A DNA stretch of 64,000 nucleotides, from the NCBI GenBank assembly GCA_964538435.1, contig CAZIDX010000003.1:15948-79947 (forward strand), read 5' to 3'. The position numbers and the translations under genes are program-made. This DNA is from an uncultured Gammaproteobacteria bacterium. Its GTDB lineage: Bacteria; Patescibacteriota; Patescibacteriia; UBA9934; GWF2-40-263. Below the pieces are notes generated by a model. It was given only the letters and a program-made list of their open reading frames with translations. It was not told the origin of the DNA and ran no database searches. Positions 19,146-59,480 of the stretch are shown one piece after another (within the stretch, counting starts at the first letter, position 1; each line of letters opens with the position of its first letter).

Positions 19146-19208
19146 TCTATCAAAAAACACAACCCAAACAGGTTGTGTTTTGTATTAGAAAAGCCTAACC
19201 CCGAAAGA

Positions 19209-20715: not shown

Positions 20716-20795
20716 TTACCAAAGTCAAACTTCCAAAGTTCAACGTTCAAAGCTAGGCTTCGACAAAAAGAAATACCCCGCCCTTGCGGACGAGG

Positions 20796-21143: not shown

Positions 21144-21157
21144 CTCACTCCTCCGGA

Positions 21158-21538: not shown

Positions 21539-21659
21539 GATCCCTCCTCTCTCTCGCATAAAACACGAGATCCGACTGTAGCTCAATCCCCCCTATTTGT
21601 CAACCACAAAACCACGCCCGAAGACGTAGTTTTGTGTGCTGTTTCTATCAGCTAATCTT

Positions 21660-36014: not shown

Positions 36015-36150
36015 TCAAAAAGACCAAAAACCCGCCAGAAGGTGGGTTTTTAGGTTGACAAAAGTGCCAAAACGTGCTATGGTAGTTAACCAAAACTGAA
36101 CAACCCTGAAACGAACAACTCTCTGCACAACATGCAGATGAAAGGACGCT

Positions 36151-36498: not shown

Positions 36499-36658
36499 CC
36501 CCCAACGGACCCCGTCCGCGAACGAGCCCTGCTGCTCGCGCGGCGGGGTTATTTCGTTTAGCAACCCCCATGGAGATGGCGACCTGAAGGCCTCGACGGC
36601 CTGACAGGTCGCAGCCCCCACCACCCCTCCCAAAGGCCCAGGACGTCAAACGGCCGTT

Positions 36659-36748
36659 CGAGGTATTGTGAGAAAAATCACGAGGTGGTGGTCGTCTATC
36701 CTGCGAGACGGCCCGGCTCCGCCTCGTTATTTTTCTCACAATACCTCG
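36659..36748 (+). repeat. Hairpin-embedded conserved-core element, copy 1
   Basis: Core GAGGTGGTGGTCGTCTATCCTGCGAGACGGCCCGGCTCCGCC (36682-36723) flanked by 24-bp perfect inverted repeat cgaggtattgtgagaaaaatcac / tcgttatttttctcacaatacctcg. Confidence 0.8.
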
Positions 36749-36894
36749 TGGCCGCCCCAAGCCCCCGCAGAAAGATCCGAGCGAAAACGCAACCAGACAA
36801 AGGCGAAGGAATGACGAAAGAAGGAAGGAAAGAAAAAAGGAAGGCAAAAAGAATTAGAAAAGCACCACGCCTGTGCGCAGTGCCCCGTATCCCT

Positions 36895-39060
36895 TTACCG
36901 GGAGAAAACGAGTTTGAACTCGAAGTGTTCGTTTGTCGCGTCCTCAACGCATGCCTGCTGAATCATCAGGAAGCTTTCCTCCAGATCAGTCTGCCCAACA
37001 TGCCTAACAGCTCGCTGATAAGCCTGGTTGCAGGCATCGACGTCCACCCTCCGGATCGTATCCACCTTGACCGTGACGTCCTTCGTGGACCAAACCTCCT
37101 CAGGCGCAACTGGAGCCATGTTGAAGCTCCCAAGGTACCCATTCGTGCGACCGCAACTCTCGTCCGCGCACATCTGAAAACCGATCGCTGTCTGCTTGGG
37201 ATCATCCTCAACGAGCTCGATGGAAGGAGCACCCGCAGGCGATCCTGTCAGGCGATAGTCAGCAATGTGACCGTTGCTCACGATCCCATCTATGGGACGA
37301 CCCGTCCAGACGAACACACCAGGACGAGGAACATCGTTGATGATCAGTGCCGCGCGAACCGGAGAGCGGCGCTCATCCAGCTGGAGCAATGCTCGCAGTG
37401 TAACCTCTTGATCATGCCTGTTGACGGTCTTGTACTTGATCAGAAGCTCATCGCCCGCGAGTGTGATCCGCTCGTAGTCACTCAACTCGAGCACAACAAC
37501 CTCTTCCCGCGCGCTCTTGAGCGTAATTCGACCAGTTTCCCAGTCGATCTTGGCTATACTCGCCTCGTGATCATACGCCCAGGTGTCCACGCGCCTGTCA
37601 AAGATGTCGCTGGTGTAAACCTGATAGGTCACACCGCGAAACCCCTCATGCTCGACATCTTCGACCGCAGCCAAGTCATCCTTGGCATCGATCTTACCAT
37701 CGCAGTCGTTGTCCACGCCATCGACCCACTCCGGAGCCTGAGGATGCACAAAGGGGTTGTGATCATCGCAGTCACCATCAGCCCTACGAGCCCCGTCCTT
37801 GTCCAGGTCCTGATAGAGTGTGCCCTCATCCACGATTCCGTCGCAGTCGTTGTCGATTTCGTCGCCTCGGACTCCGCCTTCGGTGCTCACTCCCTCGCGC
37901 GCACCAGGATGGACGTGATCGTTTGTGTCGTCACAGTCGCCAGGAAGGAGGTCAGGTGTCCGGCACTTCTCTTCGTGCTCGCAGTAGCCGTCACCATCGT
38001 CGTCAGTTTCGACTCCGTTGTTGTCTGCAATCCCATCGCAGTCGTTATCCACGGTGAGGCGTTTGAAGAAATGAGCATTTTCGAAGGCAGTGATGAATTC
38101 TGACAGCGTAACATCCCCGACGGTGTAGTCGATGCCTTTTTCGATTTCAACTCGTATGACAACCACGTCTTCCTTGATACTCTCGGATTCGCACACTCCT
38201 TCTTCGTTGCAGAAGATGGGGTGGTGAATCTCGTTTGCACCCGGGTGCACGAACTTGTCTTCGTCATTGCAGTCGCCAGGCTTTGCATCTTCGTCCGTGC
38301 ACCGGTCCACAGCTGCGCAGTATCCATCGCCGTCGTTGTCGTGATGGATGGTGCCTTCGTCCGTGTATCGGTCACAGTCATTGTTGATGCCGTCGCCGTG
38401 CATGCCGTCCTTGTAGACCTCGCCTTCGGGCGCGTCAGGGTAGATGCCAGGGTTGGTGTCATCGCAATCGCCAGGCTTGATCTTCTCGCTCGAGCATCGA
38501 CGTTCGCAGTAGCCATCGCCATCATCATCAGACCGCTCTGTGTCTTCGTCGACTTTGCCATCGCAGTCGTTGTCGACACCAATTCCCATGTCCTTGTAAT
38601 CACGACGGAAGACCTCAGGAGCACCTGGGTAGACGTCCTTGTCCTCGTCATTGCAGTCGTTGGGCTCGGCATCATCGCGACACTGGACTTCGTACTCACA
38701 AAAGCCGTCACCGTCGTTGTCCACGTCGATGGCGCCTTCGTCAGTCACTCCGTCGCAGTCGTTGTCGACACCATCACCAAAGAATGGCGTGTGCTCGGTG
38801 GGTTCCTCGAGGGCGTTGGGGTGAACGAACTTGTCTTCGTCGTTGCAATCCCCGATCTTGAGATCCTCAGACTCACACGACTCCTCGTGTGAGCAGAACC
38901 CATCGCCGTCGCGGTCTACCTTGAGCAGAGCGATTTCTTCTGCGCTGCGGTCGTTGTCGACTCCTTTGGGGAAAAAAGTGCTTACAACCAATGCAAGCAG
39001 AGCACCGACCCCAATGATCGCAGCAATTCTGATTAGCCATTCTTGTGCAGATGGACTCAT
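36895..39060 (-). CDS. Secreted/membrane-anchored protein with many MopE-like putative metal-binding repeats (CxDxDxxVxPGAxExCDGxDNDCDG) and a C-terminal globular domain
   Basis: N-terminal anchor WLIRIAAIIGVGALLALVVSTFF. Ten or more repeats such as CNDEDKFVHPNALE...GVDNDCDGVTDEG and CDDTNPGIYPDAPEG...GINNDCDRYTDEG. GC-rich codons. Confidence 0.55.
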   Translation of the reverse strand: MSPSAQEWLIRIAAIIGVGALLALVVSTFFPKGVDNDRSAEEIALLKVDRDGDGFCSHEESCESEDLKIGDCNDEDKFVHPNALEEPTEHTPFFGDGVDNDCDGVTDEGAIDVDNDGDGFCEYEVQCRDDAEPNDCNDEDKDVYPGAPEVFRRDYKDMGIGVDNDCDGKVDEDTERSDDDGDGYCERRCSSEKIKPGDCDDTNPGIYPDAPEGEVYKDGMHGDGINNDCDRYTDEGTIHHDNDGDGYCAAVDRCTDEDAKPGDCNDEDKFVHPGANEIHHPIFCNEEGVCESESIKEDVVVIRVEIEKGIDYTVGDVTLSEFITAFENAHFFKRLTVDNDCDGIADNNGVETDDDGDGYCEHEEKCRTPDLLPGDCDDTNDHVHPGAREGVSTEGGVRGDEIDNDCDGIVDEGTLYQDLDKDGARRADGDCDDHNPFVHPQAPEWVDGVDNDCDGKIDAKDDLAAVEDVEHEGFRGVTYQVYTSDIFDRRVDTWAYDHEASIAKIDWETGRITLKSAREEVVVLELSDYERITLAGDELLIKYKTVNRHDQEVTLRALLQLDERRSPVRAALIINDVPRPGVFVWTGRPIDGIVSNGHIADYRLTGSPAGAPSIELVEDDPKQTAIGFQMCADESCGRTNGYLGSFNMAPVAPEEVWSTKDVTVKVDTIRRVDVDACNQAYQRAVRHVGQTDLEESFLMIQQACVEDATNEHFEFKLVFSR

Positions 39061-39164
39061 GTGAAAGAGCTCCTTGCTTTGGAGTTGAAGATTCGCAAGA
39101 CAAACGACTTTGTCACAAAATCCCCATTATGTCAATAGAAAACAAAGCTGTGACAACACCCTTC

Positions 39165-39272
39165 AACCAAACAAGAGCGAAGCTATGGTGCGATAAAGAA
39201 TTTTCGAGGTGGTGGTCATCTAGACAGCGCGATGGCCCGGCTCCGCCGAGAAAACTCTTTATTGCACCATGG
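39165..39272 (+). repeat. Hairpin-embedded conserved-core element, copy 2 (with 5' AAGAGCGAAGCT module)
   Basis: Core GAGGTGGTGGTCATCTAGACAGCGCGATGGCCCGGCTCCGCC (39206-39247). Flanks ctatggtgcgataaagaattttc / gagaaaactctttattgcaccatgg. Confidence 0.8.
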
Positions 39273-39301
39273 CGAGCGTATTAGAAAACACCCGCAGTTG
39301 C

Positions 39302-40981
39302 CTACGAGTGCTCGTTATCCTCCGAAGAAGCTCGCTCGAGCTCGGTCTTGTTCCATTCGGCCCGAGCTACCCAGACCCGACATTCCCACATGCGTTCGCA
39401 TTGGTTCAGTCGATGAAAGATGTTCTCAATGTCCACTGGCCCCTTCCCAGGAACCTTGACATCGATCATGTCGAGTTCGCATGAGATTCCCATCTCTGCC
39501 ATGGCACGCTCGAGCTCGACCTTGCGAACCCCCATCGCGATCATGCGTGCGGAAAGTTCCTCACACATGGCATCGAGCTCCTTGATCTTGTCCTGAGCCT
39601 GATCGAAGTAACGCTTAGCCATGAAGAACCAGTCACGCGCCTTTTCAGCTCGCTGCTTGGCCTCAAAATACCACAGCTGCTCATTCTGACGCTCCCCCTC
39701 ACGAAGAAGCTGCCGCGCGCGAGCGTAGAACTGCATTCCCAGTTCATGAAGCTGCCGCAGCTTTTGGTTAGCATGCCGCTTCTCTGCAGCATCCACGCAC
39801 CTCCGAGCAGCCACTGTGGCATCGAGAAGGACTGCGTACGCAGCACTTGCCTCCCGAAGCTTGTCAGCAGCATCTTGCTTGGCAGTCTCGAGCCCCTTGA
39901 CCTGCTTCCCAAGCCGCTCCACCAGAACCCGCAGATCCTGACAAGCCACCAAGACCTCAGGAAAAAGTGAAGCGCGCCCACCGATCATGTCGAGAACCTT
40001 GTCAGCCGCAGCCACAGCACGCTCCTGGGTCACACGTGGATCATGCATTGGATCCATCTTGATTCCCGCAGGAACTTCGATCGTGTCGTAGATCACATCT
40101 TCTTCTACGAGCTCTGCTGCGTGCAGAAGCTCGTCATAGCGCTCATTGTCGAGTCGCTCCACCTCAACGAGCTCTTCGAGTCGCTTCTCGAGCGCGATCG
40201 GATCCGTCGTGCGCAGCTCATCGAGCTCACGCCAAAACCGATCCTCGTTGGCATCCACACGCAGGAGCGGATGCGAGAACCACCTCAGTGAAATCCTCTT
40301 GCTCTGCGCATTATTGAACATCTCCATGGCCCACTGCCGTGAGTAGAGCTCGCGCACTGGTGTCTCAACCACACGAACAAGCTCTTGCACCCTCTTCCAC
40401 CGAGGACGCGCAAGGTTAAGCGCGTGCGAACTGCCAGAAACGAAAGTCTTTGGCCACACCGCAACACGAAATTCTTCCTTACTCATCAAAAGCTTCTTTG
40501 AACCAAGATGCTCGGTACCGAACACGAACTCCTCGTCCATCTTCCGAAAGGCACGCTGAAGCGAGCCTGGCTTCCACCATCGTGCTTGCTCTGCCAGGCC
40601 GCGACAATGCATGTGCAGCATCCGCATGCCTGCATTCGTGACAAGAACCCGATCGAGCACCTGAGCAGCCTGACGATATACCTCGCTGGTCTCCTTGCCT
40701 AGATCCGCAAGCAAATCTACACCTGCGCGTTCAGAGAACTCAGCCCTGTACACACTCGAAGCAAAGCGAACTTCGCTCTCACGCTTTTTCAGAAGACTCT
40801 CGAACTCTTGCTTGAGCTCAGAGAACCACTTGCGTCGCATGGAGATCAGCAATGCGCCAACCACTGCGAGCACAGAACCGATCATCATTGCAGCAACCCA
40901 GATCGCATCGATCTCGCCCGGATTGGTTGTTTGCGCCGCAGCAGGCGCGATTGCCATCATGGCAAGGATAAAGCTCGTCAT
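39302..40981 (-). CDS. Hypothetical membrane-anchored coiled-coil protein (559 aa)
   Basis: Signal/TM at the N-terminus (AIWVAAMMIGSVLAVVGALLISM), then long predicted alpha-helical coiled-coil region rich in E/R/L/A. EzrA-like architecture but no sequence-level assignment. Confidence 0.45.
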   Translation of the reverse strand: MTSFILAMMAIAPAAAQTTNPGEIDAIWVAAMMIGSVLAVVGALLISMRRKWFSELKQEFESLLKKRESEVRFASSVYRAEFSERAGVDLLADLGKETSEVYRQAAQVLDRVLVTNAGMRMLHMHCRGLAEQARWWKPGSLQRAFRKMDEEFVFGTEHLGSKKLLMSKEEFRVAVWPKTFVSGSSHALNLARPRWKRVQELVRVVETPVRELYSRQWAMEMFNNAQSKRISLRWFSHPLLRVDANEDRFWRELDELRTTDPIALEKRLEELVEVERLDNERYDELLHAAELVEEDVIYDTIEVPAGIKMDPMHDPRVTQERAVAAADKVLDMIGGRASLFPEVLVACQDLRVLVERLGKQVKGLETAKQDAADKLREASAAYAVLLDATVAARRCVDAAEKRHANQKLRQLHELGMQFYARARQLLREGERQNEQLWYFEAKQRAEKARDWFFMAKRYFDQAQDKIKELDAMCEELSARMIAMGVRKVELERAMAEMGISCELDMIDVKVPGKGPVDIENIFHRLNQCERMWECRVWVARAEWNKTELERASSEDNEHS

Positions 40982-41094
40982 GGCTTTCTCACTCGGTTGA
41001 AGAGAACATTTCCTTGAGCACCAAAGTACTCCGGACCAAAAACTTAGCGTTTTAAGCCCTTTTTGTCAATTGAAAAGACGCCCTCGAAAGGACG

Positions 41095-42285
41095 TCAGTA
41101 GCGCCAGGAAGACCGACGCTTGGGCTCGTGGTTGTGCTGGTTCATCACGATCCAGACCGACAGGATCAGGCACCCAAGAGCACTGAGTGCATACGTTAGA
41201 ATGGTGACCCACAGAGGCGGCGAGACCTTCACAAGCGAGAAATCCTCGAACTCCTTACGCTCCCAGTCCTGCTCAACCTGCGAGATCATGTAGTCGACGT
41301 GACGAACCAACTCCAGGCGACCGTACTCATGTGCGTCATCCTCGATATTCCTCTTGAGATCCTCACGCTCGGTCCAGGAAACCACCCGAGACCAAGTCAC
41401 GTTCCCCTGCGAATCGACCCCGATCAGAGAGATGAGTTCGTTCTTGTTCCCACCGCTCAGATACTGCTCTTGCCAGTACCCAGCCTCCTCTGGCTGATTC
41501 CGAAACACCATCACGAACATCCGAACCTGGTGCTTGCGCCCAAGCTTGGCATTCGCCTCACTGAGCTTGAACTCAGCCATGTCCGCATCTGAGCCACTGA
41601 CTCCAAGCACTGACCTCTGCTTGTAGTTCTCGAGAATGGGCGGATAGTCGTAGAGACTGTACCGAGCCTTGACCTCGTCTGTGACCTCTTCCCACTTGAT
41701 CAGATCGTTCTTGCCTTGCACACGATTCTCGTACGCATGCTTGGTGGTGACCGGGACGAATGTCTCGGGATTCTTGTCCCACTGCACATAGTACCGATCA
41801 CCGTCGATCGTATGGAAGTCACGATCCAAATCGATGAACATGGGCTCCCCCCAGAGCTTCACCAACTCATCGAACTGCGCCTTGCTGATCGTGGTCTCGA
41901 TGCCATTGGAATCCGTGACAACCGAATGGACGGGGATATGCTTCACGTCGTACGGATGCTCATCGCCGATGTATTGCTGCGTTGTGCAGCTGTACGTTGA
42001 CCCATCCGCGTTGGTGCATGTCGACGCAACTGTGATGTACTCGGGGTGTTGGCACGGAACACGCTTGTTCCAGGCCTGGTTGTGGGCGCCAGAGACACCC
42101 CAACCGCCCCAGAACTCCCAATCCTGCACACTGACACGCTCAGACGTAAACTTGCCCAGCAGAATGATCGCGAGCACCGGAATGAACGGAAGCAAATACT
42201 CCCAGAACACGGTCCGACGCTGGTACTTGAGATACAGAATGAACGCGCAGGCGATCGGAACCGCAAGAGCTCCCCAAATCTCCAT
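41095..42285 (-). CDS. Hypothetical membrane protein (two N-terminal TM helices, large extracytoplasmic domain, C-terminal TM)
   Basis: 396 aa. Promoter TCTTGACAAAATGAG (minus sense) at about 42351-42360. Confidence 0.45.
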   Translation of the reverse strand: MEIWGALAVPIACAFILYLKYQRRTVFWEYLLPFIPVLAIILLGKFTSERVSVQDWEFWGGWGVSGAHNQAWNKRVPCQHPEYITVASTCTNADGSTYSCTTQQYIGDEHPYDVKHIPVHSVVTDSNGIETTISKAQFDELVKLWGEPMFIDLDRDFHTIDGDRYYVQWDKNPETFVPVTTKHAYENRVQGKNDLIKWEEVTDEVKARYSLYDYPPILENYKQRSVLGVSGSDADMAEFKLSEANAKLGRKHQVRMFVMVFRNQPEEAGYWQEQYLSGGNKNELISLIGVDSQGNVTWSRVVSWTEREDLKRNIEDDAHEYGRLELVRHVDYMISQVEQDWERKEFEDFSLVKVSPPLWVTILTYALSALGCLILSVWIVMNQHNHEPKRRSSWRY

Positions 42286-42371
42286 GATTTCCTCCGGTTT
42301 GCTTTGCTCTCAGTAAAAAAGCCAAGAACAAAACCTATCAGCAGTTACTCATTTTGTCAAGATTTCCAACC

Positions 42372-42402
42372 AAAAAAACCTCACAATGTGAGATTTTTTT
42401 GG
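42372..42402. terminator. Bidirectional intrinsic terminator at the rnpB 3' end
   Basis: aaaaaaaCCTCACAatgTGAGAttttttt. Confidence 0.6.
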
Positions 42403-42822
42403 TGTCCCAGGAAATGTCTGTAAGCCGAATTTTGTCTGCCTGCACCGACTAGTGCAGGGAGATGGCAATCTATCTAGGCCCCCTATTGCTAAAGGGCTCG
42501 AGCGAGCTACCAAATTTGCTCTTACACCAGAGAGGGTTTACCACGCACCCATGTCACCACGGGGCGAAACACGTAGCCAAACCTGACCTCGTGTTACTTT
42601 TCACCTTTCATCCCACCGAAGTGGAATTAGTATAGTCTCTGTGGCACTTTCCCTAGGCTTTGATGCGGCTGGGAAGCGGAATTCCAACCCCTCAACGCGC
42701 ACCTTATACCTGGTCACCGTTAGTGACTCCCCTTTTCGCCCCGCTTTGCAGAGGGACGGGTGTTCGGACTTTCCTCGAACTCCACAAGGGAGCTCGTAGC
42801 CATCCAACATTCCTGAGACGCC
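42400..42822 (-). ncRNA. rnpB: RNase P RNA (bacterial type)
   Basis: Minus strand contains CR-I GAGGAAAGTCCGAAC (RC of 42762-42776) and CR-IV-like ACAAAATTCGGCTTACAG (RC of 42421-42438). P4 pairing AGUCCGAA/UUCGGCUU shows GG->AA compensated by CC->UU relative to E. coli. P1 GTCTCAGGAATG/CATTTCCTGGGAC at the ends. TTGACA-N17-TAAGCT promoter at 42823-42858. Terminator at the 3' end. Confidence 0.7.
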
Positions 42823-42858
42823 AAAAGCTTAACAGAAAAAACCCACTTTGTCAATCCC
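42823..42858 (-). promoter_or_regulatory. Promoter of rnpB (-35 TTGACA, -10 TAAGCT)
   Basis: Minus sense ATTGACAAAGTGGGTTTTTTCTGTTAAGCTTTTGGCGTCTCAGG. Confidence 0.5.
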
Positions 42859-42903
42859 CACACCTCGCCGTCTCCCCTATTTCTCTGCTACAATACGATT
42901 ACT

Positions 42904-44316: not shown

Positions 44317-44354
44317 AAAAGAAAAAATCGGCCACAGCCGATTTTTGATTTGCC

Positions 44355-44665
44355 CCCCTTCACACAAACAAGAGCGCAGCTGTGGTGTAAATAATTGACA
44401 CAAGGTGGTGGTGCCCCCTGCGATATCGGGCGCCCGGCTCCGCCCGCAGTTGCCCCTACCCCAACCAAGAGCGAAGCTGTGATGCTGAAATAAGTTTCTG
44501 AGGTGGTGGTCGTCTATACTGTGAGACGGCCCGGCTCCGCCCGCAAAAGCACCTTCACACAAACAAGAGCGCAGCTGTGGTGTAAATAATTGACACAAGG
44601 TGGTGGTGCCCCCTGCGATATCGGGCGCCCGGCTCCGCCTTGTGTCAATTATTTACACCACAGCA
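44355..44665 (+). repeat. Cluster of three hairpin-embedded core elements (copies 3-5). Copies 3 and 5 are an about 80-bp direct duplication. Only copy 5 keeps both IR arms.
   Basis: Cores at 44402-44444 (AAGGTGGTGGTGCCCCCTGCGATATCGGGCGCCCGGCTCCGCC), 44500-44541 (GAGGTGGTGGTCGTCTATACTGTGAGACGGCCCGGCTCCGCC) and 44598-44639. Copy-5 flanks gtggtgtaaataattgacacaa / ttgtgtcaattatttacaccac. Confidence 0.8.
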
Positions 44666-44673
44666 AGCGACAT

Positions 44674-44702
44674 TGACAAAACCCCATTTTTTGCCTATTA
44701 TT
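44674..44702 (+). promoter_or_regulatory. Sigma70-like promoter for the glycosyltransferase operon (TTGACA-N17-TATTAT)
   Basis: cattgacaaaaccccattttttgcctattatttc. Confidence 0.5.
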
Positions 44703-44730
44703 TCAAACCTTGTTAGGATTCTCATACAGT

Positions 44731-45825
44731 ATGAAACTAGCGCTTGTACACGACTATTTAATGCAAGACGGAGGTGCAGAAAAGGTGTTGGACGTATTCC
44801 AAGGACTATGGCCAGCAGCCCCAACCTACACCCTGTTTTTTGATCCAAAAAAAGTCCCAACCTTTGCCGGTCGGGATATTCGCACATCATTTTTACAACG
44901 CATCCCCTTTGCCATGCGCAAGTACCAGTGGCTCCTCACACTCATGCCACTTGCAACAGAACGCATGGATGTCATTCCTTACGATGTTGTCCTGTCTTCA
45001 ACCAGCGCATTTGCAAAAGGCATTATCACAAACGAGAACGCAATACACATCTGTTACTGTCACACCCCTACCCGCTACCTGTGGTCTGACACACATAGCT
45101 ACGTTGAGGAACTTCGCGTACCACGCCTTGTCAAAGCCATTCTCCCGCCAGTCCTTTCTCGACTGCGTATGTGGGACAAGCACGCCGCAGACCGCGTAGA
45201 TCTTTTCATTGCAAACTCACAGACCGTAAAAAACCGAATCAAAAAATACTACAGGCGCAACGCAACAGTCATCCACCCCCCCGTCGACACACACAGATTC
45301 TCAATCTCAAACAAACCAAAAGAATACTTCCTCACAGGAGGTCGTCTCGTCGCCTACAAACGCTATGACATGGTTGTGGAGGCCGCAAACAGAACAGGTA
45401 TCCCCCTCAAGATCTTTGGATCAGGACCGATCGAAAAAGACTTGCGAAAAATGGCAAAGTCGAACGTAGAATTTCTCGGTCGCGTAAGTGACAAAGAGCA
45501 AGCCAAACTCTACGCAAACGCAAAAGCCTTTATTCACCCTCAAGAAGAAGACTTTGGAATCACACCCGTTGAATCCATGGCAGCAGGCCGCCCGGTTATT
45601 GCCTACCGAAAAGGCGGCGCAACAGAGACTGTTCAAGAAGGACTCTCGGGTCAATTCATTGACGAACAATCCTGGGAAGAACTTGCAGATCACATGATTC
45701 GATTCGACGAAAAAGATTACTTCCCGCCCGCCATCAAAAACTACGCAGAAAAATTCTCTCGCAAACGCTTCGAGCAAGAAATGCGAGACTTTGTCTCAAA
45801 ACACTTCACAAACCACCGAGAGTAA
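44731..45825 (+). CDS. Glycosyltransferase family 4
   Basis: MKLALVHDYLMQDGGAEKVL N-terminus. C-terminal GT4 E-x7-E-type motif region (FIHPQEEDFGITPVESMAAGRPVIA). Confidence 0.75.
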   Translation: MKLALVHDYLMQDGGAEKVLDVFQGLWPAAPTYTLFFDPKKVPTFAGRDIRTSFLQRIPFAMRKYQWLLTLMPLATERMDVIPYDVVLSSTSAFAKGIITNENAIHICYCHTPTRYLWSDTHSYVEELRVPRLVKAILPPVLSRLRMWDKHAADRVDLFIANSQTVKNRIKKYYRRNATVIHPPVDTHRFSISNKPKEYFLTGGRLVAYKRYDMVVEAANRTGIPLKIFGSGPIEKDLRKMAKSNVEFLGRVSDKEQAKLYANAKAFIHPQEEDFGITPVESMAAGRPVIAYRKGGATETVQEGLSGQFIDEQSWEELADHMIRFDEKDYFPPAIKNYAEKFSRKRFEQEMRDFVSKHFTNHRE

Positions 45826-45919
45826 TCTGTTTATGTGAATACTTTGTGAGGTGGTGGTGCCCCCTGCGATATTGGGCGCCCGGCTCCGACGAATATAGTA
45901 TTTACATAAACAGATTACG
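45822..45919 (+). repeat. Hairpin-embedded conserved-core element, copy 6. Left arm overlaps the GT4 stop codon.
   Basis: Core GAGGTGGTGGTGCCCCCTGCGATATTGGGCGCCCGGCTCCGAC (45848-45890). Flanks gtaatctgtttatgtgaatactttgtg / cgaatatagtatttacataaacagattac. Confidence 0.8.
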
Positions 45920-45928
45920 ATCAATCCT

Positions 45929-47080: not shown

Positions 47081-47192
47081 AAATAAAGACTTTTTTTGTG
47101 GATATCCTGGGGACCGAACCAGGATTTTTTGCTATAATTGCAGTAGAAAATCATTGTCAGACAATTGGGGTCATTGGCAATGAAACCTGAGT

Positions 47193-51099: not shown

Positions 51100-51102
51100 T
51101 GT

Positions 51103-52944: not shown

Positions 52945-52947
52945 TGT

Positions 52948-53796
52948 ATGAACGACTCAAAAATGGAACAATTTTACGAAGAGTTTGCAGAAGAACACAC
53001 AGACGAAGAACTTTATTGGAAAGAAAACCCTCAACCTGGAGGTTACCTCATGCCCCTTAGGGCAAAAACATTGTTAAAAAAAATCGAAGCCTCTATTCAG
53101 TCCCCTAATGACTCCATTGTTGATTTTGGATGTGGGGACGGTATCTTGTTAAAAAAAATCACAAAACCCTGCAAAAAGTTTGGTGTTGATATTTGTGACA
53201 CACATATCCAAAGAGCACAAAACAATATCCCAAATGGAACGTTCAAAAAAATCGCTCCTGAATCACAAACGCCGTTTAAAACAAACTTGTTTGATGTTAC
53301 AGTTTCATCAGAGGTGATCGAACATGTAAAAAATCCAAAACAATTTATTCAAGAACTTGTTCGAATCACGAAACCAGGAGGAACAATCATTGTCACAACC
53401 CCTTCAAAATTTGGCTTCCGTCCAGGCTCACTTACCTGGAAATGGAACATCATGGTGTGTGTTAATCGATTCTTTGACTGGGTTCCTTACAAACTTAAAA
53501 CACTGATTAAAGGAAAAAGTATTTCAGAAGGAGTAGCAAAGGAATTTACAAACCATCACCACCTGCACATTTTTAGCGCAAGAAACCTTCGTAACTTTTT
53601 TCCAAAAAAAACTGTGACAAAAAGCCAGCTTTCAACATGCGGACTATACCTACCACCAATGAAAATCTGGAGTAGGCTAACCTATCATATTCCTTTGATA
53701 AAGAAACTGTACACATTGATGGATATCATGATCGGAAAAATCCCCTTCCTCAAACAGATCAATTGCACTCTCATACTGGTAGTAAAGAAAAAATAG
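52948..53796 (+). CDS. Class I SAM-dependent methyltransferase. Low-GC gene.
   Basis: VDFGCGDGILLKKI (motif I) and IVTTP (motif post-II). About 35% GC, unlike its neighbours. Confidence 0.65.
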   Translation: MNDSKMEQFYEEFAEEHTDEELYWKENPQPGGYLMPLRAKTLLKKIEASIQSPNDSIVDFGCGDGILLKKITKPCKKFGVDICDTHIQRAQNNIPNGTFKKIAPESQTPFKTNLFDVTVSSEVIEHVKNPKQFIQELVRITKPGGTIIVTTPSKFGFRPGSLTWKWNIMVCVNRFFDWVPYKLKTLIKGKSISEGVAKEFTNHHHLHIFSARNLRNFFPKKTVTKSQLSTCGLYLPPMKIWSRLTYHIPLIKKLYTLMDIMIGKIPFLKQINCTLILVVKKK

Positions 53797-53801
53797 AAAC
53801 G

Positions 53802-53834
53802 AAAAAACCACTGATCAATATGATCGGTGGTTTT
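53802..53834. terminator. Bidirectional intrinsic terminator
   Basis: aaaaaaCCACTGATCAatatGATCGGTGGtttt. Confidence 0.6.
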
Positions 53835-54610
53835 AAAAAGCAAGAGTCCCCACCCGACCGAAGTCAGATGGGGACCGTTCTCGCAACCTGTCTCCTGCCC
53901 CTACATGACTTGCAGGGCTTCAGCCGGCGGCGATCACGTCGCACACATCGGCGGCCCGAGGTGGGGCCAGAAGTATCAGATGTTGAGGGATGGGGGCTCG
54001 TACTCTTGTCCCCCTCAAAACGCAGCTGATTTTGGGCGCGCTCAGCCGAGCGCACAGCGTTCGAAGAACCAACATGGCTTTGGCATCGGACCTCGCAGGC
54101 GTCGTTGGGGGAGCGGGGCGGAGGAAGGGCACGGTCACCTTCCCCTCACCCCTGGTTGGAGGGACAGTCCATTTCGCAGCGCAGCAGCGCTCCCGGCCTC
54201 CCATGATCACACACCAGGAAGAAGCAGAAGGCGGGCCAGCGCTGAAGAGCTCGGTCGGCGGCGAAGCGTAGCAGGCAGGCCAAGGTCGGCCTCCTCTCGC
54301 TCCGGCGCGGGGCACGGCAACCAGTCGGAATCCCTTTCGGGCCACAACAGTTGGCGTGAGTAGCACATGCAGCTCTCGCAGCCAGACGGCAACATCGCCG
54401 ACGGCCACGCTCAGCAGCCTGCATGCACCCAGATCTCGGCGCGGCTTAGGACTGTTTTGCTGGGTCTCCGTGACTCCCAGCTGACATGAACGCAAGGCAT
54501 CTCGACGGCGACCAGGGAGGCCGCATCAGCGCCGAACCATGCGTCTTGCACCCAACCGTGTGGCCCATGGCAATGCCAAAAGGCGAAGCAGAGGTTGACG
54601 AGCAAGGATG
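53835..54610 (-). ncRNA. Candidate large GC-rich noncoding transcript or structured RNA (about 780 nt, about 63% GC), unknown family
   Basis: No credible ORF: track ORFs here are Arg/Pro/Ala-rich GC artefacts on both strands. Minus-sense promoter GGGTTGACAAAAACAC at about 54641-54650. Terminator at 53802-53834. Shares the 14-mer TTAGGACTGTTTTG with the 23.5-kb candidate ncRNA. Confidence 0.25.
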
Positions 54611-54702
54611 CAAGGTATCACATTTGGGTGTTTTTGTCAACCCACTCACCTCAAAAACACCTATTTTCGACAAAAAAACGACATTTTACCAACCCTTACT
54701 GA

Positions 54703-54803
54703 GCGAAGCTGTGGTATTGCATGAGAATATGTGAGGTGGTGGTCGTCTATCCTTCGAGACGGCCCGGCTCCGCCGAACATATTCTCATGCAATACCATAG
54801 CGA
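54703..54803 (+). repeat. Hairpin-embedded conserved-core element, copy 7 (with 5' GAGCGAAGCT and 3' GCGAGCGTATTAGAAAA modules)
   Basis: Core GAGGTGGTGGTCGTCTATCCTTCGAGACGGCCCGGCTCCGCC (54733-54774). Flanks gctgtggtattgcatgagaatatgt / gaacatattctcatgcaataccatagc. Confidence 0.8.
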
Positions 54804-54846
54804 GCGTATTAGAAAATCCCGAACATCTGTTCGGGACTCGTACCTT

Positions 54847-55317
54847 CTAAGCGTTGATGTCTGTCTGCATCCGAGGCCGCTTGAGAAAACCCTTCAACCT
54901 CTCGAAACCCTCCTTGGTGCTCACAGCGATCTTGATCGCATCACCAGCCGGAGTCAGCTCATCGATCAGAACCTGCTCACCACCTGGCACCACGACCAGC
55001 AGCTTGGAGCTGTCGACACGCTCGAGCATGTCAGCGACCACACGGACCATCTGGGCATCCGTCACCAGCACCATGAGCACGTCAGCAACCCCCAGCGCCA
55101 GATCCGGCAGCAGCACCAGCTCATCCGGGATCACCGGGGTGATGACATGGTTGGGGGTCGTGAGTTCGAACCGCTTGGCCGACAGAACCACCTCGGCCTG
55201 CCACCCCTGACTCACGATCGCGAGAACATGACGCGCACCACACACATCGAGCATGTAGTGATCGGGATACTCGTTGCTGCAACCAGGGAAACCACAGCAC
55301 TGCATTCGCATCGACAT
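54847..55317 (-). CDS. Hypothetical protein (GC-rich class)
   Basis: 156 aa, no recognisable motif. Promoter GGTTGACAATTGAT (minus sense) at about 55371-55380. Confidence 0.4.
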   Translation of the reverse strand: MSMRMQCCGFPGCSNEYPDHYMLDVCGARHVLAIVSQGWQAEVVLSAKRFELTTPNHVITPVIPDELVLLPDLALGVADVLMVLVTDAQMVRVVADMLERVDSSKLLVVVPGGEQVLIDELTPAGDAIKIAVSTKEGFERLKGFLKRPRMQTDINA

Positions 55318-55412
55318 GAGAACCTCCTTTCTCGTCTCGTGAAGAAATACACCCTACCCAAAAAAGCATCAATTGTCAACCCAAACCAAAAACCACCGAA
55401 AGTCTCGATGGT

Positions 55413-56336
55413 TTAAACGGATCGCCTAACTTTTCTCGCCAGCTCATACAATCGATATCGAAGCGGCTTCAAAATCACATCAAATGTCCCCGCGCTCTCC
55501 ACATCCTCCCCACCAAACCCTCGCTTAAATCTACTTATTCCTTCCCAGGGATGATTCTCTGCGTTTGCTGGCGCAACCCCCCACCAATCGTACCACTGAA
55601 AACCTTTCTCCCTGGCGTCTTGTATAAGCCTCCAGTGCAACAGACTCGGAGCCATCAATTTTCGATATTCATGATCGCTTGCTCCATGTACATACGTACG
55701 CGTATCCCCAAAGTCATTCATAACCGTAGCAGCAACAGCCCTACCCTGAACAAACGCAGCTGCCAAAAACATCTTGCAGTCGCCATCTTTCAAAGAAGAC
55801 AACTGCTTCTCATAATACTTTTTCGAGTGAAGTTTAAACCCACCCCGAGCTCCAGTTTTCTCAAAAAGCCCCCACACATCATCAAGCTCAACCCCCTCAA
55901 TCCTAACCTCCACCTCCTTGCGCTCAGCAAGACGAATGTTATAACGCGTCTTATGATGCATTCCGGAAAGCAAATCTTCCTCACTCTTTGAAAGATCCAA
56001 AATACTTGTCACAGCTGGCTGAAGCTCAATGCTCTTCTTTGCCTCCACCTCAAGCTCTTCAGGCTCAATCCGAGCAAACATTGCCTCTCCACCAATCTCC
56101 CCCATCTTCCCAATCGGCCCTTTTGGTGCTGACCAATACTCACCAAACATCGGCACCTGCTTTCTAATCCAAAGCGTTTGCCCAATCACCTTACCCTCAT
56201 GTTCTACTCGCTGCCTCTCAATCTTCTCACCAAGAACCTTCTGGAACCCCCCCCACTCCCAAGATTGTAAAAACCGACCCGATCGCGGGCCGTTTTCCAA
56301 AACAAAACTATTCCAATCTTTTCTGTTCATAATCAT
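55413..56336 (-). CDS. FemAB-family peptidoglycan interpeptide-bridge aminoacyltransferase
   Basis: 307 aa. Pattern ...FLQSWEWGGFQKVLGEK... and GxxVAATV... typical of the FemX/FemAB fold. Overlaps the ruvA stop by 4 bp. Confidence 0.65.
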   Translation of the reverse strand: MIMNRKDWNSFVLENGPRSGRFLQSWEWGGFQKVLGEKIERQRVEHEGKVIGQTLWIRKQVPMFGEYWSAPKGPIGKMGEIGGEAMFARIEPEELEVEAKKSIELQPAVTSILDLSKSEEDLLSGMHHKTRYNIRLAERKEVEVRIEGVELDDVWGLFEKTGARGGFKLHSKKYYEKQLSSLKDGDCKMFLAAAFVQGRAVAATVMNDFGDTRTYVHGASDHEYRKLMAPSLLHWRLIQDAREKGFQWYDWWGVAPANAENHPWEGISRFKRGFGGEDVESAGTFDVILKPLRYRLYELARKVRRSV

Positions 56337-56878
56337 TTCACCATCCCCCTAAGAGCCGAGCGAATCCTTTCATCAGTAGTGTCTCCTTGAGCCGCAGCAA
56401 TCGCAGCCTCTGCATCCCGCTTTTTATACCCAAGCCCAACAAGTGCGTCAACAGCGTCTGTGTCAAACGACTCCACTGGTTCATCATCCGCAAGAACACC
56501 CTTTAGTTCCAAAACGATTTTCTGTGCTGTCTTCTTTCCAACCCCAGACACATTTGTAAGAGCACTAAGATCTCCTTTCATGATAGTTGACCGCACCTGA
56601 TCAACCGAATGCGAGAAAACAATCTTCTGTGCAATCTTTGGACCCACCCCTGAAATCGCAATAAGTTTCCAAAAAAGCTCAAGCTGATCAACACTTGAAA
56701 AACCAAACAGCTCGCGCTCATTATCACGAATCACCTCGTGCAGATACACTTCCACCTCACCCCGAAAATCATGAGTAGCGCTCTCAGGCAAAGAAACACG
56801 GTAGCCAATGCCTCCGTGCTTGATAATCAAATACCCATCTCCATGATAAAGAACCTCTCCCTGCAAATACGCCATCAT
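56333..56878 (-). CDS. ruvA: Holliday junction DNA helicase RuvA
   Basis: Start MMAYLQGEVLYHGDGYLIIKHGGIGYRV with RBS GGGGGAG. HhH motifs LISGVGPKIAQKI / NVSGVGKKTAQKIVLEL. The track ORF extends the N-terminus spuriously. Confidence 0.75.
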   Translation of the reverse strand: MMAYLQGEVLYHGDGYLIIKHGGIGYRVSLPESATHDFRGEVEVYLHEVIRDNERELFGFSSVDQLELFWKLIAISGVGPKIAQKIVFSHSVDQVRSTIMKGDLSALTNVSGVGKKTAQKIVLELKGVLADDEPVESFDTDAVDALVGLGYKKRDAEAAIAAAQGDTTDERIRSALRGMVK

Positions 56879-56879
56879 A

Positions 56880-58136
56880 CTACTCCCCCTGCTTAAATGT
56901 TTTCTTATAGTAAGCCAAGAACCTTCGCTCAATCTCCTGGTCAATTGTTTTCCCAAACTTTGGCATGTCCCCTTTGCCAATAATCCCCGAGTGAATACGC
57001 CGAAGCACTTTTCCAAACTCTGGCCCAGCCTCCATGCCAAGAAGGTCCATGAGCGCCACACCATCAAGCCCAACTGTTTTAAACACATTATTCCGTGCGC
57101 TCTTCTCTTTTTTCTCTCGATTCCGAATCTTCTCAGTCCGCATCATTGGTTCATACTGATGCTCGGACTCAAGCATGTTTACAATCGGCATAGCATCATG
57201 CCAGTACCCATGTACAGATAAAAGCTCTGATCCAAACACCGTATCAAGCAACATGCACCCCTGCATCAAATCAAGAAAATCATCACCATCCCATCCGCGC
57301 GCTCGCGCCAAGTGACGATAGCGTCGAATTCTCTCTGGCCGCACCTTAACAAAATCTTTTATAAACTCCATGTGATGCGTAATAAGATCTTCAAGTAAAT
57401 CTAAATCTCTAGCTGGCAAATCATGCGCCTGACAAAATCTCTCAAGCAATTGCTCAAACACAGGTGTATGAATCTGCCGAGCATGATGCGGATACTTCAC
57501 ATCAATCTCATACGTCATGTAAAAATCACGCTGAAGCTCGCGTGCGCCATGCCCAGGATGTTGCTCTTCAAAATCCCGATAAAGCTCTAAGTACCTCTCT
57601 CGAAGCTGTGCGCGATCCGCATGAGACTTATGCGCATACTGATTCTCCTCCATGTTAAATCCTTGCTCCTCACCCCGGGAATGCTCTCGCGACCTAAACC
57701 GAATCGTAGACCACTTTGCAATATCATGCACAAGTGTGAACACCTCATAAAGCGCGGCTTGTTCCTTAATTGTCTCTTCAAGCTCTTCAATCTCCCCCTC
57801 ATAGCCCTTGAGCCTACGGAACTCCTCAATATCAATAAGATGAACTTTCTCATCTACAATCGCATAAAGAGCCATGAGCATGCTGCGCAAATGATCGCGC
57901 ATAAAAGGACCTTCAGCATGATACCGAACATCCTGAGGAGTGCGCAGCGAATCCATAAAAAGCGGTTCAGATTGGCTCGCGCTATCAAGCATCTGCTCTG
58001 CACGCAAATACAAATCCTTATCAGCACGAATACGCTTCACCACTTGGTCAAGATACTCTGTTTCTTTTTTCTCGTGCGTTGATTCAAATCTCCACATATC
58101 ACCTTCTATTCTACGCCAAACCAAAAAGAGCTCCAA
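56880..58136 (-). CDS. HD-domain protein (putative metal-dependent phosphohydrolase), 418 aa
   Basis: H...HD signature (YHAEG...LVHDIAKW) and a second His-rich region. No finer assignment possible by eye. Confidence 0.45.
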   Translation of the reverse strand: MELFLVWRRIEGDMWRFESTHEKKETEYLDQVVKRIRADKDLYLRAEQMLDSASQSEPLFMDSLRTPQDVRYHAEGPFMRDHLRSMLMALYAIVDEKVHLIDIEEFRRLKGYEGEIEELEETIKEQAALYEVFTLVHDIAKWSTIRFRSREHSRGEEQGFNMEENQYAHKSHADRAQLRERYLELYRDFEEQHPGHGARELQRDFYMTYEIDVKYPHHARQIHTPVFEQLLERFCQAHDLPARDLDLLEDLITHHMEFIKDFVKVRPERIRRYRHLARARGWDGDDFLDLMQGCMLLDTVFGSELLSVHGYWHDAMPIVNMLESEHQYEPMMRTEKIRNREKKEKSARNNVFKTVGLDGVALMDLLGMEAGPEFGKVLRRIHSGIIGKGDMPKFGKTIDQEIERRFLAYYKKTFKQGE

Positions 58137-58146
58137 GTGAGCTCCC

Positions 58147-58731
58147 TTAAATGCCTAGGAATCGCCTCAATATCACATCCGCCTTATTTGCCACTCCTTT
58201 AAACTTCATGGACCCGTCAATAACCTCATGCGCATGCACCTGAAGCGGAACAACGATCTCCCGCTGCGCCGGAAGCGCAACACTTCTGTGATACTCAACA
58301 TCATAATCAGGCTGACGCAAAAGCCGCCTCTCAAGCGCAGTCTCTTCATCAACATCAAGCCACAGCCTAAGATCAAACATGTTGCGTATACGTTCATCAG
58401 AAAAAAGCTGCAACCCCTCCGCAAGAATCACAGGTGCTGGCGTGTAAAGCATCTCCCCTGTTGCTGCGCAAAGCCTGCGATTATAAATAGGAACAAAAAC
58501 CTCATTACCCTCACGAAGCTCTTTCAAAGCCTCAAGCACAGCATCCAGGTGTAAACTCTCAGGCAAATCCCAATGAGGTCGTCCATCCTCAAGCTTTGGG
58601 CAATCAACTGCATCCTTATAAAAATCATCTAACCTAAAACGCTTTACTCCTCCCTGCGCCTCCAAGTGATCTGCCAGCGTTGACTTCCCTGCCCCAGAAA
58701 GCCCAGCCAGTCCAATGAGAAAAGGTTTCAT
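58147..58731 (-). CDS. udk: Uridine kinase-family P-loop nucleoside kinase
   Basis: MKPFLIGLAGLSGAGKSTLADHL P-loop, followed by DDFYK. Matches the uridine/cytidine kinase family. Confidence 0.6.
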   Translation of the reverse strand: MKPFLIGLAGLSGAGKSTLADHLEAQGGVKRFRLDDFYKDAVDCPKLEDGRPHWDLPESLHLDAVLEALKELREGNEVFVPIYNRRLCAATGEMLYTPAPVILAEGLQLFSDERIRNMFDLRLWLDVDEETALERRLLRQPDYDVEYHRSVALPAQREIVVPLQVHAHEVIDGSMKFKGVANKADVILRRFLGI

Positions 58732-58797
58732 ATCGACCTCAGTGTAACGCGATTGATTCAGAGTTTCAAGAATAGAAAAACCGAGCAGATGCCCGGT

Positions 58798-59124
58798 CTA
58801 GTGTCGCTCAGCGAGAATGGCATAGGTGACTGCCATCTGCTCGCCTGGCACTGTCGAGTCCCGAAAGTACTCGACAAGTTCGTTGTCAGAGAGCATACGT
58901 TGCACATCACTGCGCATAAGCCCCCTACCGCGACCATGCACAAGCTTTACCACTCGCTCACCAGCCATGAACTGCTGGTCAACAAACTGCTCAGCCATTT
59001 TCACGCCGTCATGCGTGTCTACAGCTGCGTGCAGATCGCACTCAGGTGCGCCACCAAGCTCTGCAGCCATAAGCGCAACCTCGTACTCACGTGTGCGTTG
59101 TGAGAAGCTATCATGTCGACCCAT
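58798..59124 (-). CDS. Smr-domain protein
   Basis: CDLHAAVDTHDG...VVKLVHGRGRGLMRSDVQRML matches the Smr (MutS2 C-terminal-like) domain consensus LDLHG...IIHGKGTG.LR. Confidence 0.5.
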   Translation of the reverse strand: MGRHDSFSQRTREYEVALMAAELGGAPECDLHAAVDTHDGVKMAEQFVDQQFMAGERVVKLVHGRGRGLMRSDVQRMLSDNELVEYFRDSTVPGEQMAVTYAILAERH

Positions 59125-59364
59125 AGAAATGTGTTTACCCGCCCTTTCTGGGCGAGAGCCTGCAAGAGGCTTTTTCCAAGATCCCCACTGTCACACCAAG
59201 CGGCACAACAATGAAGAGCGGCGTGATCAGCAATGTAGCTCCCACCCCAACCTTCGCACAAGCACCAAGAGCCACCACCGCGCACCGCAGCACAGGGAAC
59301 CTACTCTTCTTCATCACTCACCTCCAAAAGAGTTAGTAAATTCCATCACTCCCCCACGCAAGCA

Positions 59365-59462
59365 ACAAATGAGATTTCTAGATTACGTAGCGAGGTGGTG
59401 GTCATCTATACGGCGAGATGGCCCGGCTCCGCCGAGCGAAGTAATCTATAAATCTCATTTGT
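59365..59462 (+). repeat. Hairpin-embedded conserved-core element, copy 8
   Basis: Core GAGGTGGTGGTCATCTATACGGCGAGATGGCCCGGCTCCGCC (59392-59433). 27-bp flanks acaaatgagatttctagattacgtagc / gagcgaagtaatctataaatctcatttgt. Confidence 0.8.
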
Positions 59463-59480
59463 TACGCAGCCACACCCTAC

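Follow-up and report, generated by a model that had tools for sequence, protein, structure and literature searches.

A family of strand-locked intergenic hairpins with a conserved apex in two related Patescibacteria genomes

The 64-kb stretch of DNA analysed here (the window, part of contig CAZIDX010000003.1 of a Patescibacteria genome) contains eight copies of a short hairpin element, and eleven further copies were found in a related genome, FLOH01 (GCA_900089805.1). The resulting family of 19 copies is genuine: it has a conserved asymmetric core and covarying stems, its orientation is locked to the C-rich DNA strand and not to genes, and the whole hairpin is gained or lost as a single unit. 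These are most likely small mobile or structural DNA elements rather than genes. Our leading, though tentative, interpretation is that of a non-autonomous, strand-locked hairpin repeat that would be recognised at its apex and be either mobile through single-stranded DNA (ssDNA) or retained as a structure. The comparison covers the 64 kb of one genome and about 100 kb of one relative, FLOH01, whose loci were picked by the core pattern itself; two genomes were sampled in all.

The genomes of bacteria of the Candidate Phyla Radiation (CPR) are tiny, with hardly any DNA to spare, and very few RNA or DNA elements of a mobile or regulatory kind are on record for them. The design of the hairpins, with a conserved tip, a free stem of fixed length and an orientation locked to one strand, is unusual among bacterial repeats, and the family is supported by 19 copies, strong covariation and one polarised gain.

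Core fold, arms and architectures

The eight cores of the window are 42-44 nt long, share the consensus AGGTGGTGGT-N19/20-CCCGGCTCCG and start at positions 36682, 39206, 44402, 44500, 44597/8, 45848, 54733 and 59392, all on the plus strand, as the initial annotation had listed them. A covariance model built from these copies scores them at 61.6-70.4 bits, the next match in the window reaching 11 bits, and the model finds no core in positions 1-36 kb nor anywhere on the minus strand of the window. When two half-core patterns, GAGGTGGTGG (at most one mismatch) and CCCGGCTCCGCC (at most two mismatches), were searched for co-occurrence on the plus strand, 21 and 9 matches were obtained against 4.8 and 2.7 expected, and none of 100 shuffles scored as high. 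The five longest inverted repeats of the window all have a core inside them, and an inverted-repeat search of the window revealed no long palindrome without one. The associated modules noticed at the outset were also recovered: the 5' module AAGAGCG(A/C)AGCTGTGGTG, seen on several copies, occurs 5 times in the window versus 0.09 expected, and the 3' module GCGAGCGTATTAGAAAA, common to two copies, occurs twice. The local duplication of about 80 bp described for the cluster of three copies is real as well; the cluster has a 98-bp period, and its units 1 and 3 are identical across ~80 nt.

Some of the initial description requires correction. Six of the eight copies are indeed long hairpins (ssDNA minimum free energy z from -3.9 to -11.3 versus shuffles), but the copies at 44402 and 44500 are half copies, with 5' module, 5' arm and core and without the 3' arm, so that not every copy forms one long hairpin. 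The long arms are real but measure 22-35 nt, not 13-27 bp. Finally, copy 45848, called intergenic like the others, has the stop codon of the upstream glycosyltransferase gene in its 5' arm.

The core fold is the same in all 19 copies. It comprises a basal helix P1 (GGUGG/CCGCC with a U.G pair), a 1-nt bulge (U), a second helix P2 of 7-8 bp, an apical loop of approximately YCNGCG, and an asymmetric 5-nt loop, CGGCU; in full copies this GC-rich apex of 42-44 nt stands on an AT-rich stem of 22-35 bp. The compensatory changes proposed for the inner stem are confirmed. The three variants listed for the window (GGTCGTCT/AGACGGCC, GGTCATC/GATGGCC and GGTGCCC/GGGCGCC) are all present, three P2 pairs show double compensatory changes over the 19 copies (CG/GC, GC/CG/AU and UA/CG), and one P2 pair switches between U.G and U-A. 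The suggested pairing of GGTGG with the distal CCGCC also stands: the central U.G of P1 is kept in 16 of 17 distinct copies and is replaced by C-G in the remaining one.

Three non-Watson-Crick features fit only a fold of the plus strand, the one reading GGTGGTGG: the U.G pairs in P1 and P2, the excess of G.T over A.C in the arms (7:2), and a tandem 5'-GA/GA-3' at the arm/core junction, found in 6 of the 16 full copies, the other 10 being Watson-Crick there. On the complementary strand the same positions would be C.A and C.T/T.C mismatches. The folding strand is therefore the plus strand; since RNA and ssDNA both tolerate G.T(U) and sheared G.A, these features fix the strand but not the chemistry.

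Over the 16 full copies of all types (A, B and minimal, defined below) the arms contain 445 Watson-Crick pairs, 7 G.T, 2 A.C, 10 other mismatches and 18 gapped positions. In the B and minimal copies the 20 nt of arm beside the core are 51% identical between copies versus 47% in shuffled sequence, that is, at saturation, whereas the cores are 81% identical; at the same time 96% of the mid-stem positions retain Watson-Crick pairing. In six B copies, moreover, 25-27 nt separate the base-module GCTG from the GGTGG with which it is aligned in the core. The sequence of B and minimal stems is thus free while their pairing, and in B their length, is constrained. The assertion that the arms are unique to each copy holds for these mid-stems, and the arm sequences have no second occurrence anywhere in the window; it does not hold for the B stem bases (GCTGTGGT/ACCACAGC), which are common to the copies, or for the A-type arms, which are 82% identical among copies, recognisably homologous across the two genomes and different mostly at compensated positions. 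A role of the arms as spacers or guides was considered and rejected: searches for exact matches in viral contigs gave 0, 1 and 0, and the lone 19-mer match is at chance level.

The family has two longer forms, A and B, plus minimal hairpins. The window copies, whose unit boundaries are approximate, are as follows.

36561-36861, plus strand: A-type unit; small hairpins 36568-36579 and 36580-36611, then a C-rich linker; closing helix of 36644-36647 with 36802-36805; long hairpin 36652-36756 with core 36682-36723; purine-rich tail with the end ATTAGAAAA at 36853-36861.
39173-39302, plus strand: B-type copy; 5' module 39173-39190; arms about 39181-39204 and 39251-39274; core 39206-39247; 3' module GCGAGCGTATTAGAAAA 39272-39288; CCCGCAGTTGCC 39291-39302; both neighbouring genes on the minus strand.
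44370-44466, plus strand: first half copy in the cluster of three, consisting of 5' module, 5' arm and a core of type 2 (44402-44444); end CGCAGTTGCC.
44467-44564, plus strand: second half copy in the same cluster, again with 5' module and 5' arm, and with a core of type 1 (44500-44541).
44565-44683, plus strand: full B-type copy; arms 44574-44603 and 44635-44664; core 44598-44639; 3' module GCAAGCGACATTGACAAAAC.
45822-45918, plus strand: minimal copy; arms 45822-45843 and 45897-45918; type-2 core 45848-45890, CCGAC variant.
54699-54816, plus strand: B-type copy; 5' module 54699-54716; arms 54708-54739 and 54770-54801; core 54733-54774; 3' module 54800-54816.
59364-59463, plus strand: minimal copy; arms 59364-59398 and 59429-59463 (83% complementary); core 59392-59433.

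The A type, represented by 36561-36861 and seven FLOH01 copies (72-81% identity to the window unit), is a unit of ~300 nt with four helices. Two small hairpins at the 5' side are followed by a C-rich linker, the closing helix and the long hairpin, with a purine-rich tail that varies in length. Copy 36682, initially described as one long hairpin, is part of a larger multi-helix unit that had escaped notice. In the consensus fold, with 64 predicted pairs and 97.8% of cells paired, both partners have changed in 15 of the 64 pairs; shuffles gave 5.1±1.6, and none of the 500 reached the observed number. When the partners were slid by 1-3 columns as a control, at most 2 doubly changed pairs were left. 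A pseudoknot between an upstream CCACCACC tract of the A units and GGTGGTGG was rejected, as the L116 copy alters the tract with the core unchanged. One FLOH01 A copy (L086:6350-6445, minus strand) has an insert of ~85 nt in its linker, holding GGCGGAGCCGGG, the reverse complement of the core 3' segment, inside a small palindrome, CCCGGCGGAGCCGGG.

The B type, of about 115-130 nt, includes 39206, 44598, 54733, the half copies, and FLOH01 L080 and L090. Its 5' base is the GCGAAGC-containing module AAGAGCGAAGC and its 3' base is GCRAGCG-(A/T)ATT(GAC/AG)AAAA, with the module forms GCRAGCG-ATTGACA and ATTAGAAAA. Minimal hairpins are those at 45848 and 59392 and FLOH01 L081.

Strand lock and gene context

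All eight window copies read on the plus strand, and orientation is also uniform on each of the four FLOH01 contigs (5, 2, 2 and 2 copies). All 19 copies, spread over 5 contigs, occupy the C-rich strand: GC skew on it is negative at every locus, from about zero (L080, -0.002) to -0.29, and along the plus strand of the window each 2-kb bin has a negative value (-0.06 to -0.32), irrespective of which strand the genes are on. The orientation of the flanking genes is mixed, some copies lying between two opposite-strand genes (n=4) and others between same-strand genes, in agreement with the early remark that the window copies keep to the plus strand regardless of their neighbours. What the orientation follows is the C-rich DNA strand and not the genes. 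As the strand lock ignores transcription, it argues for a cause at the DNA level, and we favour ssDNA transposition or processing at the replication fork because this is the best-documented cause: a replication-linked orientation bias has been described for IS200/IS605, IS607, IS91 and others and attributed to the mechanism of transposition (PMC3971601).

The skew pattern of the window resembles the unusual single-sign G/C disparity over the whole chromosome reported for some CPR genomes (PMC7143001), and the same sign is seen at the FLOH01 loci (L080-L133, L156). In a lineage of such extreme asymmetry the hairpins might serve the host as an ssDNA replication signal, such as a hairpin on one of the template strands used for priming or resembling a single-strand origin, which would suit both the absolute strand lock following GC skew on five contigs and the one-strand-specific fold. 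The ssoA single-strand origins of rolling-circle plasmids are long imperfect ssDNA hairpins of one orientation, with short conserved apex and stem motifs in otherwise unconserved paired sequence, and GCGAAGC is a very stable DNA mini-hairpin. The apical loop NGCG(A/T) presumably recalls the CS-6 loop of ssoA origins, a likeness (to TAGCGT) that appears weak. However, an ssoA occurs once per plasmid and is tied to a Rep/double-strand-origin module, whereas the hairpin family has many chromosomal copies without a Rep gene. The patchy distribution also weighs against a replication signal, with 8 copies in 23 kb against none in the adjacent 36 kb and a tandem triple containing half copies; close relatives differ by gains and losses of copies, a more distant syntenic one has none, and there is no link to replication proteins. 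We regard this explanation as very improbable.

The transcriptional context differs between the types. Conservation of the A unit begins a few bases past the terminator of the upstream gene, and each of the eight A copies is met by a convergent gene, whose 3' end lies 96-171 nt from the core. The window A unit lies between the terminator of the open reading frame (ORF) 36151-36498 (36525-36550, plus strand) and that of a convergent 721-aa gene (36886-36859, minus strand). The B copies sit between a terminator and the -35 box of the next gene. In all three B copies with a same-strand next gene the 3' module provides TTGACA-17-TAnnnT (44673-44701; L080, upstream of rpmF; L090), while a B copy with a convergent next gene has a degenerate box, TTAGAA. 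In copy 44598 the TTGACA of the module is the -35 box of TTGACA-17-TATTAT at 44673-44701, which at 11/12 is the best promoter-like match in 35.9-46.1 kb. The next gene, GT1, retains its own TTGCCT-17-TAGGAT in the window, the counterpart of the TTGCCC-17-TAGGAT seemingly used by FLOH01 GT1, so the -35 box of the element may be redundant. A terminator scan lists the neighbours 36525-36550, 36886-36859 and 44346-44323 and none of the element hairpins.

Host intergenic "punctuation" of the kind known for REP and Correia elements would account for part of this context. Whether as RNA or as DNA, the hairpins would then work in cis by blocking read-through, by stabilising the 3' ends of mRNAs or as sites for RNase III, and the B 3' modules would serve as promoters. 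The constant position of the A copies relative to convergent genes, the location of copies beside intrinsic terminators, and the TTGACA boxes, intact with a same-strand next gene and degenerate with a convergent one, agree with such a role. Against it, the hairpins are not followed by a T-run, an asymmetric conserved apex with a fixed strand and a mixed orientation to transcription is unexpected for a cis-acting mRNA element, and the one promoter box in question may be dispensable for GT1. This role is improbable.

A better case, though still the less probable one compared with a mobile or structural DNA repeat, can be made for a family of structured noncoding RNAs, trans-acting or protein-binding, that would be transcribed from the C-rich strand, with a functional apex, the helix as a scaffold and copies arising by duplication. 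It is supported by the strong covariation seen in P2 and in the four A-unit helices, by the tandem G.A motifs and U.G pairs, which are typical of RNA, and by a B stem of fixed length despite saturated sequence, and the core is near-identical in the two genomes despite neighbour proteins of 27-82% identity. Several FLOH01 A copies are followed on the same strand by an A-run/hairpin/T-run terminator. On the other hand, no sigma-70-like promoter was found upstream of any copy, conservation of the A unit starts abruptly past the upstream terminator, four copies lie between two opposite-strand genes, the B copies lie upstream of the next promoter, where little transcription is expected, and the arms have few G.U pairs (7 versus 445 Watson-Crick). 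Half copies, the tandem triple, gain and loss between relatives, and the lack of a match to any Rfam family also speak against it.

Gain, loss and distribution

The clearest evidence on the origin of a copy comes from the junction of GT1 and GT2 in the sugar-transferase/glycosyltransferase cluster. In the window the spacer is 103 nt long and mostly filled by the 97-nt hairpin 45822-45918; it is 6 nt long in FLOH01 and 1 nt in a JGI relative (81% identity), and in the syntenic locus L157 the genes overlap. With the site filled in the window and empty in three relatives, the ancestral state was empty, and since the alternatives are a whole hairpin or none, arms and core arrived together with no prior palindrome. 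Comparison with empty sites in relatives, proposed in the initial annotation, has thus shown presence and absence of the element with arms and core travelling as one, and at this site it does not support the suggestion of a palindrome-targeting element. The related suggestion of a module inserted into terminator-like palindromes is not supported either: the arms are AT-rich, 22-35 bp long and without a T-run after them, and the terminators lie beside the elements. In this filled/empty pair 13 nt of the empty site are replaced, not duplicated. The possibility that the arms are copied from the target site was discarded, as the empty FLOH01 site has no similarity to them.

Other sites differ between the two genomes as well. 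Downstream of uvrA the window has one terminator only, and FLOH01 has two terminator hairpins that bracket an A unit. The spacer between the sugar transferase gene (Bac_transf) and GT1, occupied in the window by the triple cluster, is free of copies in FLOH01, and it seems to be an insertion hotspot. In FLOH01 the same spacer (L156:11744-13045) holds two GC-rich opposite-strand ORFs of 168 and 257 aa without a family match. At the 3' end of a 559/602-aa gene there is a copy in both genomes; the two agree in orientation and in their 3' sequence, ATTAGAAAACACCCGCAGT, but the window copy (39206) is of B type and that of FLOH01 of A type. The FLOH01 A copies are 84-91% identical to each other and 76% to the window A copy, a likeness that would fit intragenomic spread or homogenisation. 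We saw no terminal inverted repeats, target duplications or conserved target sequence at the unit ends, direct repeats having been looked for in 16 copies. A shared cargo gene was considered and rejected, the ORFs upstream of the copies being mutually unrelated.

Outside the window, genuine copies were found in a scan of metagenome contigs only in four contigs of FLOH01, where ten copies score 48-71 bits and an eleventh, degenerate one (L080:3492-3535) scores 29.5 bits; the remaining metagenome matches score 23-39 bits, and five matches in viral contigs (13-26 bits) are at chance level. FLOH01 is syntenic with the window around the sugar-transferase/glycosyltransferase cluster, where neighbour proteins show the 27-82% identity mentioned above. 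No copy was found in the syntenic loci L157, from a more distant relative (61% identity in GT2), and L158, nor in L075-L079. Most homologues of the adjacent glycosyltransferase bear the name Candidatus Uhrbacteria or Patescibacteria, so that the lineage is probably Uhrbacteria-like, and the related contigs are of groundwater origin. A scan of 185,579 species-representative genomes with a 20-base exact pattern gave zero hits from this clade and 73 single hits, almost all in high-GC genomes, which probably reflect chance. The sole multi-hit locus of that scan, L058:325-2171 (CAVWNV010000011.1, from a metagenome-assembled genome of Acidimicrobiaceae, unrelated and high-GC), has four minus-strand pattern matches evenly 603 bp apart; judged by this spacing alone, it suggests a tandem repeat outside the hairpin family. 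The family is lineage-restricted, so far to two related Patescibacteria genomes.

A scan of the whole window at Rfam 15 gathering thresholds detected only RNase P and two tRNAs, and E-value scans of A and B copies gave only far-sub-threshold matches to microRNA precursors, explained by their being generic long hairpins. Together with the absence of REP, attC and CRISPR features, this agrees with the opinion expressed at the outset that the repeat is outside the named classes.

Known repeats, proposed mechanism and neighbouring features

Several known systems share some properties of the hairpins. Like the repetitive extragenic palindromes (REP) and their composites BIME and REPIN, which are linked to RAYT transposases of the HUH Y1 type, they are short non-coding extragenic hairpin repeats without coding capacity, located at gene 3' ends or between convergent genes, and the REP group acts as folded single strands. 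REPs, however, are imperfect palindromes of 20-40 nt with a 5' GT(A/G)G, usually arranged as inverted pairs in both orientations, whereas the hairpin units are 95-300 nt long, have no GTAG-type head in the copies read and are co-oriented within contigs in 19 of 19 cases; they conserve an asymmetric apex over variable stems, and no RAYT gene was found in the ~170 kb of window and FLOH01 sequence. The ends of IS200/IS605 elements and palindrome-associated transposable elements (PATEs) are hairpins that function on one DNA strand, without terminal inverted repeats or target duplications, and neither such repeats nor duplications were seen at the ends of the hairpin units. IS200/IS605 elements have an orientation bias relative to replication (PMC3971601), and the hairpin family lies on the C-rich strand of 5/5 contigs. 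The A unit has hairpins near both ends, but these are dissimilar, and B and minimal copies have one hairpin. The 4-5-nt left target of IS200/IS605 is conserved, whereas the left flanks here vary (AAAC, AACC, TTAC, GTAA, TCCA; boundaries approximate); the stems are far longer and not conserved in sequence, and no TnpA was found in the same ~170 kb.

Correia elements of Neisseria and the ERIC (or IRU) repeats of enterobacteria, both miniature inverted-repeat transposable elements (MITEs), are also intergenic long hairpins, of 100-150 bp, with presence/absence polymorphism and outward promoter boxes. MITEs have conserved terminal inverted repeats, target duplications and both orientations, in contrast to the hairpin family with its differing arms (51% versus 47% shuffled in B and minimal copies), conserved centre (81%), fixed orientation and lack of duplications. 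A and B units also extend past the arms, and presence/absence at orthologous sites is common to both. Intrinsic terminators combine a GC-rich stem with a T-run, and the AT-rich arms are not called as such by the scan. As to CRISPR, the only cluster has three units with a 98-bp period, of which units 1 and 3 are duplicates including the "spacer", and no cas domain was found among the ORFs tested by Pfam.

Integron attC sites depend on structure and not on sequence, act as one strand and lie at gene ends. The elements could accordingly be imagined as attC-like sites marking the cassettes of an integron-like system without a nearby integrase, being structured, strand-specific, sequence-variable sites at gene ends, with GC-rich, lineage-specific segments abutting 4 of 6 loci. 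But attC conserves the stem base with its R''/R' boxes (RYYYAAC/GTTRRRY), and in the hairpins no such boxes are visible and the apex is conserved instead; the neighbouring genes are on both strands, the spacing is 1-9 kb, and neither an integrase nor a cassette array was found. Of all explanations weighed here it is the most remote. In comparison with MITEs and attC the layout of conserved and variable parts is reversed: the apex, plus the stem base in B, is kept, with a free helix between them whose length in B is fixed. The family fails the defining tests of sequence and architecture of REP/BIME, IS200/IS605-derived elements and hairpin MITEs, and is best called a new, uncatalogued variant of "small structured intergenic repeat".

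In the preferred interpretation, the non-autonomous strand-locked hairpin repeat, the C-rich strand reading GGTGGTGG would fold, and a trans-acting protein would recognise the conserved apex; in B copies it would recognise the stem base as well, placed at a constant helical distance. Folded ssDNA would be the form in which the element spreads or is processed, in step with replication. IS200/IS605 and REP/RAYT elements follow this logic, which would account for the absolute strand lock. Spots beside terminators would be "safe" ones in which copies survive, and some B copies may supply a -35 box to the next gene. Various observations weigh against this scheme. The unit ends are fuzzy and without a conserved target sequence, and there is one degenerate relic only, the 29.5-bit copy. 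In B and minimal copies, cores that are 81% identical above saturated arms that are 96% paired look more like the outcome of long-term purifying selection on each copy, that is, of a host function, than like selfish DNA in decay. The ssDNA argument fixes no polarity relative to the leading or lagging strand, and the sample is two genomes, in one of which the loci were pattern-selected. As was stated initially for the neighbourhood of the copies, no transposase, HUH, reverse transcriptase or integrase domain was found in the ORFs of 36-61 kb tested by Pfam and NCBIfam. No Y1 transposase was detected by tblastn in the ~170 kb either, a weak negative, the IS608 and IS200 TnpA query sequences being approximate. 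The readings are not mutually exclusive, REP and Correia elements being both mobile and functional.

A broader possibility, which we consider rather unlikely, is a new class of strand-specific signal, in which the apex and the stem base would be held 25-27 bp apart by a helix of arbitrary sequence and read by a protein on one DNA strand or on its RNA. Such a signal could be a new HUH-like mobilisation system, a replication or priming signal tied to the extreme G/C asymmetry between the strands in this lineage, or a multi-copy noncoding RNA with specificity in the hypervariable duplex. If the strand lock does reflect ssDNA transposition, it points to an undiscovered mobilising enzyme; if the hairpins have a host function, they provide a handle on the organisation of replication and transcription in lineages of extreme strand asymmetry. 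In practical terms, the elements break short-read assemblies and could be a covariance-model marker for the clade. A contig of the same organism (L074, Logan SRR8146440, 7643 bp) spans only the stretch between copy 36682 and the 44402 cluster and appears to be broken at the two copies, the repeats fragmenting the assembly.

Several neighbours of the copies are of interest in themselves. Directly upstream of the A unit lies ORF 36151-36498 (115 aa, 64% GC, no family match), with the promoter TTGACA-17-TATGGT at 36055-36083 and the terminator 36525-36550; this ORF and the region 36.9-41 kb are absent from L157. Directly upstream of copy 54733 is a segment of ~770 nt (53850-54620) with 63-66% GC versus ~47% in the genome, in which ORFs overlap on both strands and no Pfam, NCBIfam or Rfam match was found. 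On its other side this copy adjoins a GC-rich ORF of 156 aa without a family match (54847-55317, minus strand); the hairpin 54818-54837 just past the copy, followed by TTTTCTAAT on the minus strand, is the terminator for this convergent ORF. The hairpin at 59392 lies 47 nt from the 3' end of a convergent CNNM/CBS gene and ~240 nt downstream of a GC-rich ORF (58798-59124, minus strand) encoding a 108-aa Smr-domain protein (MutS2-like nuclease domain).

The RNase P RNA of the window is of class A (42404-42815, minus strand, 158.9 bits) and is located between a 396-aa gene and the sugar transferase gene. A tRNA-Ile with anticodon TAT is encoded at 16760-16835 (plus strand). In the region 19173-21655, with ~52% GC, the longest plus-strand ORFs translate to an implausible sequence rich in R, H, L and T, and the real genes probably use the opposite strand or a different frame.

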